A stretch of 64,000 bases of DNA from an uncultured Phycisphaerales bacterium (GTDB lineage: Bacteria > Planctomycetota > Phycisphaerae > Tepidisphaerales > Tepidisphaeraceae). Location: assembly GCA_963755915.1 (NCBI GenBank), contig CAVWLP010000002.1:1792001-1856000 (forward strand), read 5' to 3'. A program made the translations under genes and the position numbers. This document shows, in pieces, positions 6,975 to 38,500 of this stretch. The first letter of the stretch is position 1. Every line of letters begins with the position of its first letter. The notes under the pieces were generated by a model. That model was given only the letters and a program-made list of their open reading frames with translations, was not told the origin of the DNA and searched no databases.

Positions 6975-8140
6975 ATGGCAAAAGCTGATAAACCTTCAAA
7001 GCCGGCCCAGCGCGAAACCGGAAGAAAGCATGGCTTCAAAAATTCAACTCGCCGGAAGGATGCGGGGGGCTTTGCGTTCGCTCGTCCCCGTAGCGCTCAA
7101 CATTGCTTCAGCCGGCGGCGATTTCGAACCCCTCGAACACCAAGGTCTTCGCGCCGCTGCCTGCGCGACTGGCCTGACGATCCGCAATTTATTCCTGGCT
7201 GGAATTCGCTGCTCAAGCAGAATCCCTGGGCCACGGTTTTTCGCTCGCCCGCCTGGCAGTCCGCGGTGGTTAACGAATTCGTTCCCGCCGGGCTCTTCCG
7301 TTTGATCACCGTTTCCCGAAACGACGAGCTGCTGGCGGTTTTGCCGCTGGCGCTTAACACCGCCTCCATGCTCGAAACGCCTGGCCGATGGGTTACCGAC
7401 TATCTCGATTCTCTCGTTGATGCCCAATCTGCCGAGGCGTGCTGGGAAATCATCCTCGGTCTGCTCGGTAACCTGTGGGACTGGTCCGTGGGCGCGGTGG
7501 TCTTTCATCACGTCCGGGCGGATTCGAACATGCGTCAGATTCTCCCGGTACTGGGGCCCAAGTTCGGATTCCAATACCAGGAATCCCTTACCACCAGCGC
7601 CCTTATCTGGAGCTACCCAAAACCTGGGACGAATATCTTGCCTCCATCGATTCCCACGAGCGCAAGGAGATGAAGCGTAAGGTGCGAAACGCCCAGACCA
7701 AGGCCAATCTCCAGTGGCGGACGTTCCGCACGGAAGAGGAATTGCTCCCGGCGCTGGAGCGCGCTCTTTCGGCCATGCGGCAATCCGAGGCCCCAAAGGC
7801 CGATTTCACGGATGAGGTTCTCGTGGGCTTCCTCAACCGGCTCTGTCCGGTGCTCTGCCGGCAGGGGGATTTCTTTCTACAGGAACTGGTTTTGGAAGAT
7901 AAGCCCTCCGCGTGGCTGCTTGGGCTGCCCAGCGAACGCGGGCCGATGATTTACAACACCGCCTACGATTTCACGCAGAAGCAGTGGAGCCCTGGAATCG
8001 TGGCGTTTGCAATGTCGATCCAGGAGGCCATCACGGCCGGCGCGCCGGTTTACAATTTTCTCCGCGGCGCTGAGGAGTATAAAGACCGGCTCGGTGCTAA
8101 AGACCTCCAACTGCTCAAGATTCAGCTCATTCCGACCTGA
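6975..8140 (+). CDS. GNAT family N-acetyltransferase, CelD/BcsL-like (frameshifted; start may be 7030)
   Basis: VFRSPAW, LLAVLPL, TDYLD, PYLELPKTWDEYL, WSPG, YNFLRGAEEYKDRLGA motifs over ORFs 6975..7673 and 7475..8140. Confidence 0.8.
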
Positions 8141-8467
8141 GTTCAGCCACCCCGTCAGCAACCCGCCTCGGCGTTAAGACATCCCTTCCGAAGGGCTTAA
8201 TTTAGGTATATGATCGCCTTATCGGACGATTGAGCCCCTGAAATTGGCCTGATCGGGCGATGTGGTGTATATCCATGATTGAGCGGAATACGCTGCGGTG
8301 AATCATCGAGGATTCGCCGTTTTGATCATCATCTGCAATTCGCGGCCGCCTTCCCACGGAAGGATCACGCAGCCGCAGCGAAGGGCCAGAAGAGTGCGTA
8401 GCACGTTGGGGCCGTCGCGGGATTGAAGGATTTGAACAACTTGTTGTTGGGAGACGAATGGACCGCC

Positions 8468-9682
8468 ATGACTGAGCGGACGCTTCACATTTCGCCGGAC
8501 CACTCCTCACGCGAGGATCGGTTCGATCGCTTTCGCCTGATCGGGTGGTGGGACCAGTCCCGCCTGGCCGCGGCGAAGGTGCTCGTTGTCGGGGCGGGTG
8601 CGCTCGGCAACGAAATCATCAAGAACCTGGCGCTGCTGGGCGTGGGGAATATTCTCGTCGCCGATCTCGACCGGATTGAGAATTCCAATCTTTCGCGCTC
8701 CGTGCTTTACCGCGAATCGGACAATGGGCGTTTCAAGGCTGAAGTTGCCGTCGAAACGGCCCGGTCCATTTATCCCGACATCCGGGCGCACGCGTTTAAC
8801 GGGAATATCGTTCACGACCTGGGCATGGGCGTTTTCCGCTGGGCGGACGTTGTGATCGCGGGGCTGGATAATCGCGAAGCGCGGCTCACGATCAATCGCT
8901 ATTGCCACAAAGTCAATCGCCCGTGGATCGACGGGGCGATCGAAGCCATTGCCGGCACGGCCCGGGTTTTCCTGCCGGGCGACGGGCCCTGCTATGAATG
9001 CACGATGTCGCAGACGGATTGGCAGCTTCTCCAGGCCCGCCGGTCGTGCAATCTGCTGACGCGCTCGGAGATGGAGCAGGGGAAGACGCCGACGACGCCG
9101 ACCATCGCGTCGATTATTGCGGCGGTTCAGTGCCAGGAGGCGGTGAAGCTGATTCACGGGCTGCCGACGATCGCCGGCCGGGGGTGGGTATTTGAGGGTC
9201 TTTCCGCGGATTCGTACCTGGTCGATTACCAGCGGAAGGAAGATTGCCTGAGCCACGAAACACTTGACGAAATTCATTCGCTCGACGCCGGCGTGGAAGA
9301 GATGCCGATCGGCGATTTGCTGAACGAAGCGCGGCGGCTGGTGCCTGGCGCTCAACTGGAACTCGGCCGCGAAGTGCTTCAGTCGCTGGACTGTCCGCGC
9401 TGCGGCCAATCGGAAGAACTGTTTGTTTCGCTCGGAAAAGTCCGTGCGGAGAAGGCGTTTTGCCCGAACTGTTCCGGCGTCCGCCGGAGCGTCAAAAGCT
9501 TTTTCCAGATCGGAAGCGAAAGGGGATTGCTGAACCGGACGCTTGCCCAGATCGGCGTGCCGCCGCTGGACATCGTCATCGCCCGAAACGGCGCCCAAGC
9601 CGTCGGGCTAGAACTGGCCGCGGACCAGAAACGCGTCCTCGGCCCGCTTGTTTTAGAAACGGAGGCTCTGTCATGGGAGTAA
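8468..9682 (+). CDS. Ubiquitin-activating E1-like enzyme (ThiF family) with catalytic Cys and a C-terminal Zn-finger/ubiquitin-fold-like domain
   Basis: VLVVGAGALGNE, DLDRIENSNLSR, LDNREAR, PCYEC and EDCLSH Zn ligands, RRSCNLL followed by TPTTPTIASIIAA; C-terminal CPRC and CPNC pairs. Confidence 0.92.
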   Translation: MTERTLHISPDHSSREDRFDRFRLIGWWDQSRLAAAKVLVVGAGALGNEIIKNLALLGVGNILVADLDRIENSNLSRSVLYRESDNGRFKAEVAVETARSIYPDIRAHAFNGNIVHDLGMGVFRWADVVIAGLDNREARLTINRYCHKVNRPWIDGAIEAIAGTARVFLPGDGPCYECTMSQTDWQLLQARRSCNLLTRSEMEQGKTPTTPTIASIIAAVQCQEAVKLIHGLPTIAGRGWVFEGLSADSYLVDYQRKEDCLSHETLDEIHSLDAGVEEMPIGDLLNEARRLVPGAQLELGREVLQSLDCPRCGQSEELFVSLGKVRAEKAFCPNCSGVRRSVKSFFQIGSERGLLNRTLAQIGVPPLDIVIARNGAQAVGLELAADQKRVLGPLVLETEALSWE

Positions 9683-10483
9683 CGCAATCCACTGCCACGG
9701 AAACCGAAAATAGCGGCGGACTCGACTTCGCCCACCTGCCGCGCCGCGAGCTGATCAAGCTCAACGGCCTGCGCAGCGTCTCTTTCCAGGTCGTTGCCCG
9801 CCAGTCGGCGCTCAACCGCATTCACGTTCACGGCGATTCGTCGCCGCGCGGAAGTCTGCGGCGTGCTCGTCGGGGATGTTTATCACGACGAAACCGGTCC
9901 CTTCCTGCTTATCGAGCACATCATCGAAGGACAGGCCGCCACCGGCAGCGCCGGGCAGGTGACCTTCACCGCCGACACCTGGCAGCACATTCAGCTCCTG
10001 ATGGATCGGCAGTATCCGGACCTCCGCATCGTTGGGTGGTATCACACGCATCCGGGGCATGGGATCTTCCTCTCCGAGATGGACGTTTTCCTGCACGAGA
10101 GCTTCTTTGGTCTTCCCTGGCAGGCGGCGTTGGTTTATGACCCGCGCAGCGGCGATGAGGGGATCTTCAGCGCCCATGAGGGACAGGCGCACCGCCTTGA
10201 ATATGTGGTCGAATCGGACGAGCCTTCGGTCAGTGGGCCACCTTCGCCGGTGCTTTCGCCGGAGGCAGCGGCGCCTCTTTCAACAATTGAGCCGGTGCAG
10301 ACGAAGGCCAATGCTCCGCTGGCTTACAAGCGGAAACGGCCGGTCTGGGTGCCGATGGGCAAAATGGTGCTGGCTTTTATCGGACTAGTCCTGTTTGTGG
10401 CCATGGGCGGGCTGCTGGGCCTGCTTATCCGAATGCAGCATTTACAGCTTCCCTATTGGATTCAGCAGATGGCTCATGGATAA
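9673..10483 (+). CDS. JAB/MPN (Mov34) metallo-isopeptidase with C-terminal TM helix (frameshift near 9850)
   Basis: EVCGVLVG plus VGWYHTHPGHGIFLSEMD JAMM motif; GGAGG RBS before ATG 9673, which overlaps the E1 stop; hydrophobic MVLAFIGLVLFVAMGGLLGLLI. Confidence 0.92.
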
Positions 10484-10494
10484 TCTATGGGCGT

Positions 10495-10578
10495 GGTAAT
10501 GGGTTAACTGCGTGTAGCCCCAGGTTGGCGAGGCTCGATGTTGAGCCTGCTCAGGCTTCTGGGGGTTAACCCATTGCC
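10495..10578. other. Long intergenic stem-loop
   Basis: GGTAATGGGTTAAC pairs with GTTAACCCATTGCC; inner CCCCAG/CTGGGG and AGGCTC/GAGCCT stems. Confidence 0.7.
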
Positions 10579-10673
10579 TCCTGCCCCAATGGATTGGCGC
10601 AACGATTTTTGAGCCCTGATCCGGCCCGCTGGGATTGTCGGCCGTGCATGGCGTTTTGTTTGCGGCAGTTCGC

Positions 10674-11758
10674 ATGGCCAGCGTCGTTATCCATTCAGAA
10701 GAGCCCATCCAGGCTGCGTCTTTTTCCAGCGCGTCCTGATCGGGCGCAAGCCTTTCAACGGGATCCAGTTTGGGCAGCGAATCGTTTCCAGGATCCACGC
10801 CTGGATCGACAAGGACGGCGACGACTTTTATATCCGCGACGCCCGCAGCCGCGGGGGGACCTTCGTCAACGGGAAGCGCACCAACGGAAAGATCATTCTG
10901 CACGACGGGGATGAGATTCGCATCGGCACGTCGAAGATGACGTTTCACGACAGCGACGAAATTCCCGAGCACGCAGTAACCTTCCAGATTGCCGAGGACG
11001 GGACCAATCCGGGATTTGAGGATCCGGGAATTCTCATTGCCTGCGAGGCGTGCAGCGCACCGATGTGGGTGCCGGCGAGCATGGCGGGGGCCTTTGGGCG
11101 ATGCGGGATTTGCAGCGGGGAGATCAATGTTCCGGGGGAGCCGGCATCGGGCATCCGCCGGCCGCTGACGCCGAACGATTCGATTGTCGATATGCCGGCA
11201 ATCAAGCAGCCGGTCGATCTGGGGGAATCGGCACGGCCGTTTGATCCGCTGGCGGTGGATATGCCGCAGCCCAAGCCGGAGGCCGCCGCGAGAACCTGCG
11301 GCGTGTGCCAGAGCCCGATTCTTCCCGGAGAGGCGACCATCCCCTGCACGAGCTGCTCGCAGGTTTATCATGCCGAGTGCTGGTATGAAAATCGGGGATG
11401 CGCCGCGTATGGGTGCGCGCAGGTTGGGGCGCTGGATACGAAAACAGAGGAGCCGGAGCCGGCGCTTGCGGCCAGGACTGCCGCACCGGTCGCCGCGGCT
11501 CCCCAGCCGGCGTCGCGGCCATTTCCCTGGGATTTTGCCCTGCTGGGAGGGAGCGTTCTGGGCAGCGTCTTCGGTGCGTTCACGTTTGGGCTGCCGGCGC
11601 TTTTGGTGGGGGCTCTGTCGATTATCTATGCACGGCGGCAGCGAAATGGGAGTCATCGCCTTGCAACGATCGCTACGGTTATCTGTGTGGTGGGTGTGGC
11701 CGGTGGGGTTATCACCAGCAGCATCATCTTCAATGTTCCACTGTGGAGAGGCCGATGA
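10674..11758 (+). CDS. FHA + Zn-ribbon + prokaryotic RING-type finger + C-terminal TM helices (putative E3 ligase; frameshift near 10725)
   Basis: In frame upstream of ORF 10937: VLIGRKPFNGIQFGQRIVSRIHAWI..D..SRGGTFVNG..LHDGDEIRIG (FHA); CEAC-x16-CGIC; C-x2-C-x12-C-x2-C-x4-H-x2-CW-x5-C-x4-C at 11297-11416; hydrophobic C-terminus. Confidence 0.85.
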
Positions 11759-12477
11759 TCCGCTTCTCCTGCCCGGGGTGTGGGCGGAAATTCACCGTCC
11801 CAAATCTCTACGCCGGCAAAAAAGCCAAGTGCAAGACCTGCGATCACGATATCGTGGTTCCGCAATCGACGGATGCGCCGCCGGTTCCGCAGCCGGTGAA
11901 ATCGAATGAAAAACTTCCCGTTCGCACGCGCCGGCTGATTGCCGAGCAGCAGCAGATGCGGCAGGCGTTCAGCAGGGGGGCGCTGATCCGGCTCATGCAC
12001 GTCATCGGCAGCCCGGCTGAGGTGTACAAGGTGGAGTTCAAAATCCGCGGGGTTGAATCGCTTGAATCCGACCAACCGGTCTTTCGCGGCAATCACGTCG
12101 CGGAGATCCGGCTGACGCGCGACTACCCGCGGCTGGCGCCGGCTTGCCGGATGCTTACGCCGATTTTTCACCCCAATATCGATGAATCGACGATCTGCGT
12201 CGGCGATCACTGGGTGGCGGGGGAGCGGCTGACCGACCTGGTTATCCGGATCGGGCAGATGATCGCCTATCAGCAGTACAACATTAAAAGCCCGCTCAAT
12301 GGTGAAGCGGCGATGTGGGCCGATCTCAATCCTGATTTGCTTCCGATCGATGCCCGCGATCTTTATCCGCCGGAACGGCCCAAGGAGCCGCAGCCGATTG
12401 CCGCTCCCGCTGGTGGATCTTCAATTGCTCCAAGTCCCGGCGACCAGAGTCCACGCACCGAAGGCGAGCAGGCATAA
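11755..12477 (+). CDS. Zn-ribbon + ubiquitin-conjugating E2 enzyme
   Basis: ATGA overlap with the upstream stop; MIRFSCPGC-x16-CKTC; DYPRLAP..LTPIFHPNIDESTICVGDHW..SPLNGEAA (HPN motif and catalytic Cys). Confidence 0.93.
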   Translation: MIRFSCPGCGRKFTVPNLYAGKKAKCKTCDHDIVVPQSTDAPPVPQPVKSNEKLPVRTRRLIAEQQQMRQAFSRGALIRLMHVIGSPAEVYKVEFKIRGVESLESDQPVFRGNHVAEIRLTRDYPRLAPACRMLTPIFHPNIDESTICVGDHWVAGERLTDLVIRIGQMIAYQQYNIKSPLNGEAAMWADLNPDLLPIDARDLYPPERPKEPQPIAAPAGGSSIAPSPGDQSPRTEGEQA

Positions 12478-13952
12478 AACCAGGGCGAGGTAGAGCCGGC
12501 GCATAAAGCGGTCGAAGTCGGCAGTTCGGTGCGAATCGCGGCTGAGGAATTCCAGGAAATGCATCCGCTTGGCGATGCTGCCGTGGCACCAGCTTCGGGC
12601 GGCTACGGGGATATTGTTTACCGCGGCGACGCGCTCGAGGGCGGAACAGAAGACGGCCGCCCCGCGGCGTCCGACGTAATCCGCCTGGGTGTCCTCTTCC
12701 AACAGGGCCGTTTGCGTTGTCGGCCCATCCATCATTGCTTCGACGGTCGCGAAGGTTTCCTGCGGCTGATCGCGAGAAATCTCCTGGATCGCGCGGGCTG
12801 CGAAGACATCCGCCTGGCGCTCAAACTTGCGGCTGACAAATCCAAACGCCAGGGCGAAGAGCCCCATAGAGCCGGCCAGAAGCAGGGCGATCTGAACCGG
12901 CTCGACGAGCCAGTCGTAGCGGGCGTGGAGCGATGTCATCGCGTTGACGAGAATCTGGCCCGGCCCGGCGAAGGCGAGCATGAGGGCCATGATCGCGGCC
13001 ATGAGCCAAATCAGGTGGCGGTGCATGACGTGACCGATTTCGTGGGCGAAGATGGCCTCGATTTGCTCGTCGTGCATCGTCTCCAGCAGCAGGTCGCTGA
13101 GCAGCACGTAGCGGAAGCGCGGGACGAATCCCATGACGGCGGCGTTGCCCATCTGGTTTTCGGTTTTCCAGAGAAGCACGTCGCGATAGCGCACGCCATG
13201 CCGGCGGGCGATTTCGGCCAGCTTGTCTTTCAGGGGGCAATCGGGAAGGGGCTCGGTTCGCAGGACACGGCGGAGAATTTCGGGGCCGAAGATGATCAGC
13301 ATGCCGACGGCCGGGAGGGTTACCAGCGCATCGACCATGTCCTCGCGCTGAGCCATCGCCGGAACGAACTGCATAATCAGGGTGAGGCTATCGTGGACGG
13401 TCACCAGCAGAATTGCGGGGGCGAGCGTGAAAAGAAGCTGCAATCGGAGGTTTACCAGGAAATAGGTGCGGAAGGATGGTGGCCTCTGAACCGGGAGATT
13501 TTCGTTGAGCTGAATGAGAATGTTCTGTTCCCGGAGGGCTCGGTCGGCGGGGAACTGGGCCCACCAGATTCCCATCCAGGAGAGAAATGAGGGCAAACAG
13601 CCGAGAAGCAGGCCTGGCGCATCGAGGGGCAATCGCCCAAAGGCCGTGCGGTCGAGCACGGCGTCGATGAGCGCCCGCCAGCCCAATGCAAAGACTCCGA
13701 CGCCAAGCCACACGGGGATCAGAATCCTGCTGGCGTAGATGACGAAATTGAAAATCCGCAGGCGGCGCTGAACGTGATTGAAATGCGCCGCCCGGGCGAC
13801 GTGGCGGCTCCAGAGCCCGAGGACCAGAATCACAGCGGCATATCCGCCGAGAAAATCGCGCATCCAGCGGCGGACGAGAGTGCGCCGACCGGGGCGAGCT
13901 GCGGGCCGGTCAGCCAGATCACCAGGATAATGAGGGGCAGAAAGCGGGACAT
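12421..13952 (-). CDS. M48 family (Ste24/HtpX-like) membrane zinc metalloprotease (frameshift near 13852)
   Basis: GNAAVMG, AIFAHEIGH, SRKFERQAD, HGSIAKR; multiple TM helices; rejoined N-terminus MSRFLPLIILVIW. Confidence 0.9.
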
Positions 13953-14053
13953 CTTTGGTGCCGTTCAACCCTATCGGAGATAGCAAAAATTGTCGAGAAA
14001 ATTTCACGGTTCGGAAGCTGAAGGGACGGGGCGGAACCTGGCAATTTCGCGGT

Positions 14054-14950
14054 TTATTCGCCCATCTGCTGGGACGACGATTGGGCGTTGTGCAGATAGC
14101 CGGTAATCGTGACGGCACAGACCACACCCACGGCAATCACAACAGGAATTGCCCGGATTGCCAGCCTCACCCATCCGGATCGTTTTTTGATTGCGGGCAG
14201 ATCGCCGACCAGCGCCAGCAGCGGCGTGGCAAGCAATATCGCGATCCATCCCTGCTGTGCGCCGGTGAGAGTATCGTCCGTATAAAAATAGGCGTGCACG
14301 AGCAAGAGCTGGAGCATGAGGACGATGGCCTCGGAGAGGCCGTGCGAAAAGGTGATGCGCCTGCCTATCGCTTCGAGGATCACGACGATCAGGCAGACGA
14401 ATGCCAGGGAACCGGCCATCGCGCCGGAGCTGAGAATGTGCCAGCCGAGGGCCATGACGATGGCGGCAGCCGCGGAGATGCCGCCGAGGATCAGCGGTGC
14501 GGTCATCGCGGGCTCGGTCTGGGCAAGCGATTCGAATGCAAACCACCAGAGCAGGGTCGCCAGGGTGGAGACGTCGATCCACATTTCGGCGTCGTTGGGT
14601 GAGATTGATCTGGGAATCTGCGGCGCGAGCAGCAGACGAACCGCGAGGCGCCAGAAGATAATCAGCACGACAGTCCGGACCCAGATGGGGGGCCGGAAAA
14701 GGCTGTCGGCGAAGCTCAAAACGCCGGCCGTTACGCCGAAATAGAAGAGGAGATAGAGGACATTGGCCGAGGGCGGCCAGCCGGGTTTGGTCTCGAGGTT
14801 CCAGAAGGCGATTCCAAACCCGGCTGCCGCCGCCAGTCCCAGGACGCACCGGGCGGTGGGATGCAGCTTCCACAGCAGCAGGGCGATGACGGCGACCAAC
14901 AGCGCCGGCACGACCAGGCCACCGACGATTTGCGTTCCGGTGAACGGCAT
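14054..14950 (-). CDS. Hypothetical polytopic membrane protein
   Basis: 298 aa with about 9 hydrophobic segments; co-directional with yceI and the M48 gene. Confidence 0.75.
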   Translation of the reverse strand: MPFTGTQIVGGLVVPALLVAVIALLLWKLHPTARCVLGLAAAAGFGIAFWNLETKPGWPPSANVLYLLFYFGVTAGVLSFADSLFRPPIWVRTVVLIIFWRLAVRLLLAPQIPRSISPNDAEMWIDVSTLATLLWWFAFESLAQTEPAMTAPLILGGISAAAAIVMALGWHILSSGAMAGSLAFVCLIVVILEAIGRRITFSHGLSEAIVLMLQLLLVHAYFYTDDTLTGAQQGWIAILLATPLLALVGDLPAIKKRSGWVRLAIRAIPVVIAVGVVCAVTITGYLHNAQSSSQQMGE

Positions 14951-35597: not shown

Positions 35598-38500
35598 TTC
35601 CAGGCCAATCAGCGCGTCGGTGAATACGTGCTCGATAGTCTCGTAGCGCAGACCCCCTATGCGGAGGAGTGGCGCGCGCACCACCATGCCTGGTCAGACC
35701 AGCTTGCGCTGGTGAAAATTCCCACGGATGCGCAGTACGTAAGCAATTTGCAGCAAGAGGGGGTGCGGCTACATCGGCTGGTCCATCCGAACATCCTCTG
35801 CCCGCTGGGGTTCGATCCGAAGGGGCAGCCGCCGTATCTGATCACCGAATTTATCCCCGGGGAAACGCTGCGGCAGTGGATCGCCGGCAAAAAACTCAGC
35901 GTCGATAAATCGGTGAACATTTTGCGCCAGGTGCTGGAAGCGCTGCGTTTCGGACATGAGCGGCAGATCGTTCACGGGGATGTGCGGCCGGAGAACATTC
36001 TGCTGGAGACCAGCGCGGCCGCGGGCGACTTCGCCGCCAGCGGCTCGGTCAAGCTGACCGATTTTGGCGTCGGTCAGGCTGCGACGGCGACGGTCACGCG
36101 CGACGCGGCCGCCAAGGCGCAGCCGCAGCGCGGGTCGCTCGCCTATGTGGCGCCCGAGCAGCGGGACGGGGCTGCGCCGGACGTGAAATCGGATATCTAT
36201 TCCGTTGGCGTCGTGCTTTTTGAAATGCTCACCGGCGAACCGCCGAGCGGCGCCGAGCTTCCCAGCGAATTGAATTCCGATGTTCCTGCATCGCTGGATG
36301 ACACCTTTAAGAAGGCCTATGCCCGCCGCGACCGCCGATTTGAATCGGCGAAGGCGTTCCTCGATGCACTGGCGCCGGGGGTGCGTCACAGCCGGTTTTC
36401 CAGGCGCCGTCGCCGGCGGCTGCGCCGGTTGAAACCGAGCTGAAATTTCGCGAAGCCGATATTCCTGTCGCCCCAGTGGCAGAGACAGTAGAGCCTGAAT
36501 CCGAGGCCGGGGGTGAGCTGAGCCTGAAATCTGACGACGATTATTCACCGCCGGCCTTCGCGTCTGAGGACGAAGCCGCCGCCGAGGCTGCGGAACCCCT
36601 CGCCGACGAACCAGCGCCGGCCACTGACGAGCAGCTTGAGGAGCAACAGGAAGCCGGCGCCGACACGGCGGTTACGCCCGAAGAACAAACGGGGGGCGAG
36701 CCGGTCATCCCGCCGATTCCGCGCGTTACCTCCCGCGCCGATCGCGATGCGCTCTTCGACGAAATCAGCAAAAAGCAGGTCCGCAGCGTGGAGGAATTGC
36801 GAAACGCTCTCAAGGGCTACTTCGAAATCCGCGACATGGACCAGGGCGAATCCGCGAACATCCGCCTCCGGCTGATCCGCTGGGCGAACGCCTTGGCCGG
36901 CGGGAGCGCCGAGGTCGAAAACGGGATTTCGCTCATCAACGCGGCGGCAAGGCCCCTGTACATCGTCAAGCTGCTGATTCGCAGCACCCGCGGCGACGAA
37001 CCGGAGCGATCGCAAACCCTGGAACATCTGATTGCCCCACAGGCGGGGTCGATGCTGCGCTCGGCCGATTACCGTCTCCTCGCCCATTTTTCCTCCGGCG
37101 CGCTCAATGAAAAGCTTCTGGAAACGATCGCCAGCGCGCCGCTGCGGGCCGCCGTCATCAACCTTACGCGCGACAGCCGGCGGGAATTTTTCGGGAGAAT
37201 TCAGCGCGAAGACCTGCTGATCTACCGCGCCAACGTCATCACGGCGGCGTACCGATTTGATAAGAAGAAATATCGGGCGTTCCTGGTGGGCAATGGGTTG
37301 AGCATCGTGTCGGCGGGGGAGCCGTTCACGAAGATTCGGCAGGAGCCGACGAAGCGGGCGGCGACGCTTCTCAATGGGGAGCAGATTCACCAGGGGATGA
37401 AAGAGCTTCGCCGGGCCCTCGACGACTCGCAATGGGAAAGCAAGGCCAACGGAATCCTGGGCGCATGGCGCGGCAAGCTTGCGGCGGCGTATGTCGCGGA
37501 GGCGAAGGCGCAGTTCAAATCGTTCGGGTGGCTGGAAAGCCTGGAATATTCCGCGAAGGCGGGGCAGCTTGTTCCGGGGCAGGAAGACGCGATTCAACAC
37601 GCCCTGCTGGTGCGAAAGCGGATTGGAAATCTTCAGGTTCTGCCTGGAACCTTTATCGCGGTGGTGCTGGTCGGGCTGGCGGTTCTGGTCGGGCTTTTGT
37701 TTCCCGACCAGATCAACCAGGCGACGACGATGAAGGCCAAGTGGATCCAGATCGCGCAAAATCCGCTCCTGGCGGCGGGCGTGGCGGCGTGGATTGCGAC
37801 GCTCTGGTCGGCGTCGGTGCTGAAATCGCGCCTGGCGCGCACGGATTTCGCGTTTTACCAGGCGGCGGTTTTTCCGCTGCTGGTGGCGCTGGCGATCGCG
37901 TTTGTGAATTACAAGAGCCCGGTGCGCGCGTCGATTTGCGGGGCGCTGCTTGTCGCCGTTGTCGTGGCGGACGTGGTGGTGTTTAAGAAGTTTCGGCGAT
38001 ATCTGATCCGGCCTATCGACGAGGGGAGCTTTCCCGGCGATGGGCTGACGGTGCTGAATCGCATTGAGTCGATGCTCAACGAAGACTGGGAGAGGATAAA
38101 GCCGCACTACATGGAGCTGGGGCCGCTGTACAGCTATACGTCGGTTCATGCGGCGGAGGGGGCGATGGGGGAGTTGATGCAGGAGCCGGAAACTTCCGGC
38201 GGGTCGAGCGACGATACTGCCGGGGGCACGGTTACCGGTAGTTGGCATGCGGCGCCGGCGCCGGCCTCGTCGGAGCCGATTGAGACGGGCAATCCGGAAA
38301 TCGACCGGCTGGCGGCGCAGATGAATGCGCGGATTTCGGCGAACCTTCGCGTTCTCGCGCCGGCGGCGCGAGTGCTCATGACGCTGTTCGGGGAATACAC
38401 GAAGGCGGTGAACAATCACCAGATCGGGATGGCGCAGTCGAACGCGGCGAAGATCGAGCAGAAGGGGAAGGACCTGGCGGCGAAGCTGGCGGATTTTGAC

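Follow-up and report, generated by a model that had tools for sequence, protein, structure and literature searches.

The window analysed here is a stretch of 64,000 nucleotides (nt) from an uncultured Phycisphaerales bacterium of the family Tepidisphaeraceae (contig CAVWLP010000002.1 of assembly GCA_963755915.1). On its forward strand lies an operon that encodes, in this order, an E1-like adenylating enzyme, a membrane-anchored JAB peptidase, a protein joining an FHA domain to a zinc-binding finger, and a ubiquitin-conjugating (E2) enzyme (Table 1). The third gene, which we call the FHA-finger gene, is our main subject. Its product comprises an FHA domain, a zinc ribbon, a finger of the Prok-RING_1 type and C-terminal transmembrane (TM) helices, and the initial annotation had put it forward as a candidate FHA and RING-type E3 ligase of the membrane. 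The architecture, the neighbouring JAB, E2 and E1 genes and a predicted E2 interface lend this partial support, whereas structure comparison with Foldseek does not separate a RING from a PHD topology.

Table 1. Features of the operon and of the FHA-finger gene, in window positions.
Feature	Position	Strand	Evidence or remark
E1-like adenylating enzyme: ThiF, C-terminal zinc ribbon, beta-grasp-like tail	8423..9682	+	Pfam ThiF 2.5e-53
JAB/MPN metallopeptidase with C-terminal TM helix	9673..10483	+	Pfam JAB 5.3e-10; JAMM motif HTHPGHGIFLSEMD
FHA-zinc ribbon-Prok-RING_1-TM gene (FHA-finger gene)	10674..11758	+	361 amino acids with the missing G restored at 10728/9
FHA domain	10674..10960 (Pfam core 10733-10927; first strands from 10674)	+	Pfam, AlphaFold2, Foldseek
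1-nt gap, AGG read as AG, splitting the gene into two frames	10728..10729	+	G001 alignment; X1 and X5 contigs
Zinc ribbon, four-Cys, CX2C-X16-CX2C	11042..11113	+	Cys invariant; four short strands in the model
Linker motif LTPND (T, with D at +3; RRPLTPNDS)	11165..11179	+	Candidate phosphosite or FHA ligand
C4HC3 binuclear finger (Prok-RING_1)	11297..11416	+	Pfam PF14446; invariant ligands; pLDDT 93-97
Membrane anchor	11537..11743	+	Hydrophobic stretches of 32 and 30 amino acids, RRQRNGSHR between them (hydropathy scan)
E2: N-terminal zinc ribbon and UBC fold, HPN motif, catalytic Cys148	11755..12477	+	Pfam UQ_con 5.2e-9

The open reading frame (ORF) listing of the window gives 10937..11758, with 273 amino acids, for this gene. 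The frame of that ORF is open back to 10613, with no ATG, GTG or TTG upstream of 10937, and the upstream segment encodes a complete FHA domain with the motifs GR, SRxH and GTFVNG, as had been noted at the outset. A search of 5.8 billion proteins with the window protein yielded 121 matches at E<=0.001, which argues against a chance architecture. The homologues are mostly 350-380 amino acids long, all those examined are single ORFs, and several bear the name 'FHA domain-containing protein [Tepidisphaeraceae bacterium]'. Because their N-termini read MAS[VL]VI..AASFS[RK]RVLIGR, we place the true start at ATG 10674. From this ATG the window encodes MASVVIHSEEPIQAASFS, in a frame that differs from that of RVLIGR. 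When the DNA was aligned with that of the closest relative (G001, whose protein is 96-97% identical to that of the window), the window proved to be one G short within CCAGGCGCG, at 10728/10729. Past the break the window sequence is free of stops and 97% identical to the intact orthologue P0001.

To these alignments we added contigs, not raw reads, from public sequencing runs, compared over 10300-11900. A soil metagenome run (X1, 0.95 of sampled words) contains a 715-nt contig at depth 5.73 that spans 10706-11419 (714 nt); it has a G inserted behind 10728 and 0 other differences from the window. A second contig of this run (record 1) ends at 10729, short of bridging the gap site. In run X5, a contig from a ~95% relative has an A behind 10729, which gives AGA, also Arg, and keeps the frame; runs X2 and X3 reach no further than the gene's flanks and are uninformative for the indel site. 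Since an otherwise identical soil-run contig carries the G, an assembly error, rather than biology, is the most likely cause of the break. The indel suspected at 10670-10740 is present in the sequence as given, but it is very probably not a trait of the organism, and the FHA segment would be translated together with the rest, as in the single-ORF homologues. The gene is very probably intact in the organism, running from ATG 10674 to the stop at 11758 and encoding 361 amino acids. A frameshift in the T5 run (10718-10722) or in the T4 run near ATG 10649 is ruled out by the position of the gap in the G001 alignment, and a programmed frameshift or a non-canonical start by the orthologues being single ORFs.

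To describe the protein, we aligned 77 of the 120 listed matches, choosing the longer ones and leaving out near-duplicates and short fragments; the counts of homologues below refer to this set. An AlphaFold2 model was computed with this alignment for P0001, which is intact and 97% identical, so that the two frames of the window did not have to be joined. The model has a mean predicted local distance difference test (pLDDT) score of 84.2 and a predicted template modelling score of 0.55. An FHA sandwich occupies residues 11-105 and a four-strand ribbon 130-162; these are followed by a disordered linker (184-208) and a confident finger.

The FHA domain is the most clearly assigned part. In the translation of 10613-11755 the Pfam FHA profile (PF00498) matches over its full length (1-67 of 67) at E 1.1e-16, with 61.4 bits against a curated cut-off of 20.7, and it matches all 77 homologues. 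The motifs G-R, S-R-x-H and T-x-V-N are invariant or at least 90% conserved, with G34, R35 and H52 invariant and S49, R50, S69, R70, T73 and N76 at 90% or more. The Gly-Arg, Ser-x-x-His and Asn residues are those that we take to contact phosphothreonine in FHA domains. The model shows the eleven-strand β-sandwich of the fold with a pLDDT of 92-97 across the domain. Foldseek matched the whole model to the FHA domains of GarA, EmbR and Ki67 (E 6e-8 to 3e-7), with a TMt of 0.75-0.86 for isolated FHA chains and 0.23-0.24 for full-length EmbR; among these, GarA (6i2p_E) gave E 6.4e-8 and TMt 0.82, and 3poa gave TMt 0.86.

Downstream of the FHA domain, the zinc ribbon, the finger and the C-terminal helices lie where they had been annotated. 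The ribbon is present, with its four Cys invariant, in 77/77 homologues. A pattern, C-x2-C-x3-[WF]-x-VP-x3-AG-x3-[KR]-C-x2-C-x3-[IV]-x-VP, is common to this ribbon and the N-terminal ribbon of the E2 (11767-11862). These two ribbons, and also that of the E1, may represent a common docking or membrane module. The linker motif, in the form [LMV][TS]P[NHD]D, occurs in 49 of the 77 homologues. The finger keeps the spacing CX2C-X12-CX2C-X4-H-X2-C-X6-C-X4-C throughout the set (X12 in 76), and its eight C4HC3 zinc ligands and the Trp after ligand 6 are invariant. Finally, AlphaFold2 models the anchor of P0001 as three helices (296-311, 317-332 and 339-362), so two or three membrane spans are predicted. 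In one relative from another genus (G013) the FHA-finger ORF (seen at L017 7919-8110) ends just past the finger, without membrane helices, and a 297-amino-acid homologue (P0109) looks alike, which indicates that soluble variants exist.

Prok-RING_1 (PF14446) is matched by 72 of the 77 homologues at E<=0.001 (best 3.6e-10), against 4/77 for PHD and 1/77 for zf-RING_2. Weaker PHD, C1 and zf-RING_2 matches overlap the finger of the window. When a profile of finger sequences was compared with PDB chains, setting aside a designed C2H2 protein that heads the list, the RING-H2 fingers of EL5 (1.5e-4) and RNF24 (1.1e-3) preceded the first PHD finger, that of KMT2D (3.2e-3). The C4HC3 ligand order agrees with the description of prokaryotic RINGs as C4HC3 in a published review (PMC11354881).

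The E2 gene follows without a gap, its ATG at 11755 overlapping the stop of the FHA-finger gene as ATGA both in the window and in a relative (G010). Residues H139, P140, N141 and C148 of the E2 are invariant in 50 sequences, and its profile matches UBE2C and UBE2N in the PDB. The C-terminal tail of the window E2 is ~23 amino acids longer than that of G010 (240 vs 217 amino acids in total), and the tail region (12380-12477) overlaps the end of a convergent M48 peptidase gene (12421-14136, reverse strand).

We obtained one prediction of the complex between E2 residues 50-210 and residues 180-245 of the in-frame product of the window, both supplied as alignments and together with two zinc ions. 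The interface score ipSAE was 0.75 (0.76, 0.75 and 0.72 in the individual runs), whereas the best of three controls scored 0.00; the partner pLDDT was at least 81 and the contact agreement at least 96%. In the calibration of this score, 58 of 80 solved complexes and 2 of 110 mismatched pairs came up to the mark. The predicted contacts on the E2 are residues 56-64 (helix 1), 125-126 (YPR) and 152-158 (HWVAGER, at the L7 'SPA' position). We presume the YPR position to correspond to the L4 Phe of UbcH5. In this prediction the finger thus sits against helix 1 and the L4 and L7 loops, where RING domains canonically bind an E2.

The gene product belongs to a known, computationally defined family, that of the Prok-RING_1 type. 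A profile of the finger and TM region (14 sequences), searched against 1.84 billion cluster representatives, matched 3615 proteins at E<=0.001, of which 454 scored <=1e-10 and 94 scored <=1e-30. Among the best 150 representatives, 136 match Prok-RING_1 (best 1.4e-40) and 81 carry an FHA domain. Other partner domains occur in no more than a few of these 150, C1-type matches aside; these we take for cross-matches to the finger, of the sort that the window protein also shows. Since FHA is present in 81 of the best 150, the FHA-finger-TM arrangement is the dominant architecture of the RING-TM module and no oddity of the window. It is the commonest form, and one homologue already carries the name 'FHA domain/Prokaryotic RING finger family 1', given by JGI. 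The family is large and coherent. Our literature searches found no publication on the bacterial combination of FHA and prokaryotic RING, though one may exist. RING-bearing bacterial operons are described as rare and uncharacterised in a 2023 preprint (PMC10557695).

The operon is conserved among relatives. The order E1-JAB-FHA-finger-E2 recurs in four of nine relatives' loci (L013, L014, L015 and L021), E1 and JAB adjoin the FHA-finger gene in two more (L017 and L019), JAB alone was matched beside it in L020, and the FHA-finger gene alone was matched in L016 and L018. Within the genus, all 13 genomes searched, this one (G000) included, contain the FHA-finger gene. At five same-genus loci the M48 gene flanks it in all five, a GNAT gene stands on the other side in three (L013, L014 and L021), and E1, JAB and E2 are all found beside it in the same four loci that keep the full order. 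No mobile-element genes were seen adjoining the operon in the Pfam scan of the window or in the relatives' loci, and no NCBIfam model scored above its cut-off for any component.

This genome encodes a ubiquitin-like protein (Ubl) of 89 amino acids that matches Pfam YukD at 8.2e-13. Its gene lies next to one for a multi-TM protein with a C-terminal FHA domain (TM-FHA) at C2:4666995-4668552 (L022), 2.87 Mb from the operon; the TM-FHA gene is spread over three frames in this assembly. A DUF2617 gene precedes the pair. The Ubl ends in ...ITAG-stop in G000 and in a relative from another genus (G024), and in ...ITAGGD..., that is GG plus a tail, in G013. In G024 the operon itself comprises the YukD-like Ubl (89 amino acids), E1, JAB, a 424-amino-acid multi-TM protein with a C-terminal FHA domain, the FHA-finger protein and E2. 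G013 keeps this order from the Ubl through the FHA-finger gene, but neither the window E2 nor the G024 E2, used as queries, gave an E2 match there. Six genomes from other genera (G013, G015, G016, G017, G023 and G024) have the Ubl and FHA-finger genes on one contig, within ~11 kb. In the genus studied here, the genes for the Ubl and for the second FHA protein have relocated away from the operon.

Across 41 genomes, which are kin rather than independent and include the unpublished G014 in both tallies, the FHA-finger gene was found in 21 (E<=1e-26) and the Ubl in 19 (E<=1e-5), all within those 21; the other 20 genomes, which lack the FHA-finger gene, yielded no Ubl. The two genomes with the FHA-finger gene and no Ubl match are G006 (59% complete) and G020. 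A second, distant Ubl-like domain (33% identical) is encoded ~131 kb upstream of the window (L024, G000:C2:1655000-1667000), beside a ThiF-family gene, a proteasomal-type AAA ATPase with OB domains and a Pup-ligase family gene. That locus is a separate tagging system.

Several details of the neighbourhood bear on its annotation. The assembly, of three contigs and 81% 'complete', has at least three more frame breaks in neighbouring or linked genes. A 2-nt gap after ~9850 relative to G010, where the gene is an intact 275-amino-acid ORF, puts the N-terminal ~60 codons of JAB (MGVTQS...HVHGDSSPR) in another frame. Both the window and G001 are 2 nt short at this gap, within a CG repeat, which points to an assembly error common to the two or else to a real change. 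Upstream of the E1, whose start may be ATG 8468, a GNAT gene (Acetyltransf_6) is split into overlapping ORFs (6975-7673 and 7475-8140); its G010 orthologue is one stop-free ORF of 389 amino acids, and the split is probably another assembly indel. A six-frame reading of the interval between GNAT and E1 (8141-8422), considered as a site for a Ubl gene, revealed no ORF conserved with G001 or G010. The interval is conserved with G001 and partly with G010, and contains a GC-rich palindrome-like element that may be a terminator or regulatory element. The genome has 12 matches to Hanks-type kinases. The sole Ser/Thr kinase match in the window lies at 35679-36401 (Pkinase E 3.7e-32), ~24 kb downstream of the operon.

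We compared the operon with known systems. According to its Pfam text, Prok-RING_1 has bacterial members with TM helices, encoded beside E1, E2, JAB and Ubl genes. Burroughs, Iyer and Aravind (Mol Biosyst, 2011) are said to have described prokaryotic RING E3s together with E1, E2, JAB and Ubls, the E1s reportedly with a C-terminal UFD and the YukD-like Ubls reportedly proposed as conjugated. The operon analysed here shows this context: a C4HC3 finger, TM helices, and E1, JAB and E2 genes adjacent, the Ubl gene being part of the operon in G024 and G013 and lying in trans in the present genome. Further shared points, as far as those reported features go, would be that the likely modifier is a YukD-like Ubl and that the E1 has a beta-grasp-like C-terminal tail. 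It differs from such systems in that the window finger scores just under the family cut-off and in that the Ubl and the second FHA protein of the genus lie at another locus.

With the MARCH and Doa10 ligases, to which the protein had been likened at first, it shares the C4HC3 ligand order and the membrane anchoring. The likeness does not extend to membership of RING-CH. No RINGv match occurs among the nine Pfam families that match the window protein at E<=0.1, and the finger spacing differs from the RING-CH consensus, CX2C-X10-45-CXC-X7-H-X2-C-X11-25-CX2C; the match is to Prok-RING_1 instead. Unlike those ligases, the window protein carries its anchor at the C-terminus, with two to three helices. 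BilABCD and the Cap2/Cap3 pair of type II CBASS resemble the operon in using bacterial E1, E2 and JAB chemistry on a Ubl or protein C-terminus, and PADLOC models of those systems match the E1 adenylation domain. They have neither a RING E3 nor an FHA domain, and the window E2, with no PADLOC match, is a canonical HPN-Cys UBC protein that matches eukaryotic UBE2C and UBE2N.

The Ubl resembles YukD and EsaB of type VIIb secretion, as it matches Pfam YukD and FHA domains occur in both contexts. YukD is reported as not conjugated (PMC1779556). Unlike YukD and EsaB, the Ubl described here ends in Gly (GG plus a tail in G013) and is inherited together with E1, E2, RING and JAB. The operon of Caldiarchaeum subterraneum, as described in reviews that cite Hennell James et al. 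(2017), is similar in its compact set of Ubl, E1, E2, RING E3 and JAB-type deubiquitinase (Rpn11) and in an E2 with a canonical RING-binding surface. Its RING protein is small and soluble and has no FHA domain, zinc ribbon or TM helices, its modifier is strictly ubiquitin-like where ours is YukD-like, and the system is reported to have been reconstituted in vitro, whereas the family described here is known from sequence and prediction.

The closest eukaryotic parallel in layout is with RNF8, CHFR and Dma1/Dma2, described as the FHA-RING ligase family in, for example, PMC3637335 and PMC3406662. The window protein shares with them an N-terminal FHA domain with the finger C-terminal to it, and it would share their logic, in which a phosphothreonine mark is read and an E2 recruited, without belonging to their family. 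Their fingers are of the C3HC4/RING-HC type, and the proteins are soluble and dimeric; the finger of the window is a prokaryotic C4HC3 with very short loops, and the protein has in addition a zinc ribbon and a membrane anchor. Because there is no evidence of common descent with the eukaryotic fusion, independent assembly is the simpler reading, and we infer that the FHA-RING fusion arose independently here.

Taken together, the product of the intact gene is probably a RING-type E3 adaptor that is anchored in the membrane and serves a bacterial ubiquitin-like conjugation system. The protein may bind phosphothreonine and act as an E3. In the mechanism that we propose, the E1 would activate the YukD-like, Gly-ending Ubl and hand it to the E2, and the finger would recruit the charged E2 on the inner side of the membrane. 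Dependence on a mark set by a Ser/Thr kinase would come from the FHA domain. Its ligand could be a phosphothreonine on the substrate or, more speculatively, one in the co-inherited multi-TM FHA protein or in the protein's own LTPND linker. The JAB peptidase would reverse the modification, or process the Ubl where it is tailed.

A number of observations weigh against this explanation as a whole. The finger of the window reaches 24.8 bits with Prok-RING_1 (E 2.2e-5), under the gathering cut-off of 29.1, and no basic 'linchpin' residue directly follows its last Cys (the alignment reads YGC[APT][QEH]VG). For a finger-only model (15-sequence alignment, pLDDT 74.6), Foldseek gave 0 PDB matches at E<=0.001. 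In the ranking below that level PHD fingers come first (Pygo2 2xb1 at 0.032, MLL3 PHD6 and AL3), followed by RNF24 (0.19) and RNF12 (0.20), and this order therefore leaves room for a non-E3 peptide-binding finger. The complex prediction, with its custom alignments and added zinc, differed from the runs behind the ipSAE calibration, and the score of the finger and E2 shows likeness rather than binding and may reflect memory of solved RING-E2 complexes. In this genome the operon contains no Ubl gene, Prok_Ub (PF14454) has no match in the whole genome, and the sole PF00240 match is the distant Ubl locus; G020, 95% complete, has the FHA-finger gene and no Ubl match with the query used. No kinase or phosphatase adjoins the operon, and the nearest kinase match is the one in the window, ~24 kb away. 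The soil run X1 is possibly the source sample of the window, in which case its contig re-reads the sequence and the organism is not an independent one. Finally, our literature searches found no biochemistry for any family member.

Part of this evidence feeds a different reading, which we regard as rather unlikely, namely that the finger is not an E2-activating RING but resembles a PHD or some other binuclear treble-clef module, with a peptide, the Ubl or a lipid as its ligand. The protein would then be a phospho-dependent scaffold, receptor or substrate, and the E2 would transfer the Ubl without an E3, as in Bil and CBASS. Besides the Foldseek order and the absence of a linchpin Arg, this reading draws on the Pfam matches of the window finger to PHD (PF00628, 3.3e-4, 21.1 bits against a cut-off of 24 that is not reached) and C1_1 (0.036), and on the X4 before the His, which resembles the PHD consensus spacing. 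It also fits the characterised bacterial Ubl systems, which consist of E1, E2, Ubl and deubiquitinase, RING E3s being rare according to the 2023 preprint cited above. Opposed to it are Prok-RING_1 as the best profile in nearly all homologues, the RING-H2 chains slightly ahead of PHD in the PDB profile comparison, the predicted docking on exactly the canonical E2 surface where the controls score nothing, and the overlap of the finger-gene stop with the E2 start here and in G010. A structure prediction had been proposed as the way to separate the two topologies; these comparisons do not separate them, and Prok-RING_1 is the best descriptor of the finger. We consider it very unlikely that the frameshift is real in the strain, leaving a pseudogene or only the FHA-less product from ATG 10937: the gap is present in the sequence as given, record 1 of X1 stops at it and the site is covered by contigs only, yet the bridging contig has the G, the same assembly has further frame breaks, and the sequence 3' of the gap is stop-free and close to that of P0001.

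A role in anti-phage defence of the Bil or CBASS type, with the FHA domains sensing phage-induced phosphorylation and the Ubl being conjugated to phage proteins, appears distinctly unlikely. The PADLOC models for E1-E2 (Cap2-like) and BilD do match the E1 adenylation domain, at 3.2e-17 for the best, but no PADLOC 2.0 model matches the E2, the FHA-finger protein or the TM-FHA protein, and the JAB match is weak (0.0015). The presence of the gene throughout the genus, with conserved M48, GNAT, E1, JAB and E2 flanks and no mobile-element genes seen beside it, looks like vertical inheritance rather than a sporadic island. Given that the PADLOC matches are generic ones to the E1 adenylation domain, that each of the 13 genomes searched in the genus has the gene and that its flanks are kept, we favour a housekeeping or regulatory role over phage defence.

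For annotation, the locus illustrates how indels in long-contig metagenome assemblies conceal N-terminal domains, with three or four genes of the operon and its linked locus hit. For experiment, the Ubl, E1, E2, FHA-finger, JAB and TM-FHA genes form a compact set of five or six with which bacterial RING E3s, YukD conjugation and their substrates could be tested. Tentatively, and with more doubt than confidence, we suggest that Tepidisphaeraceae and many other bacteria possess a phosphorylation-gated Ubl conjugation at the cytoplasmic membrane, in which the mark of a Hanks-type kinase is read by the FHA-RING E3, a YukD-like Ubl passes from the E2 onto a membrane substrate, perhaps the multi-TM FHA protein, and the membrane JAB erases it. 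If true, this would be the first covalently conjugated Ubl of the YukD family and an independently arisen prokaryotic counterpart of the RNF8 and CHFR logic. Should the biochemistry hold, Ser/Thr phosphorylation and Ubl conjugation would be joined in one bacterial polypeptide, as they are in the eukaryotic RNF8, CHFR and Dma1.

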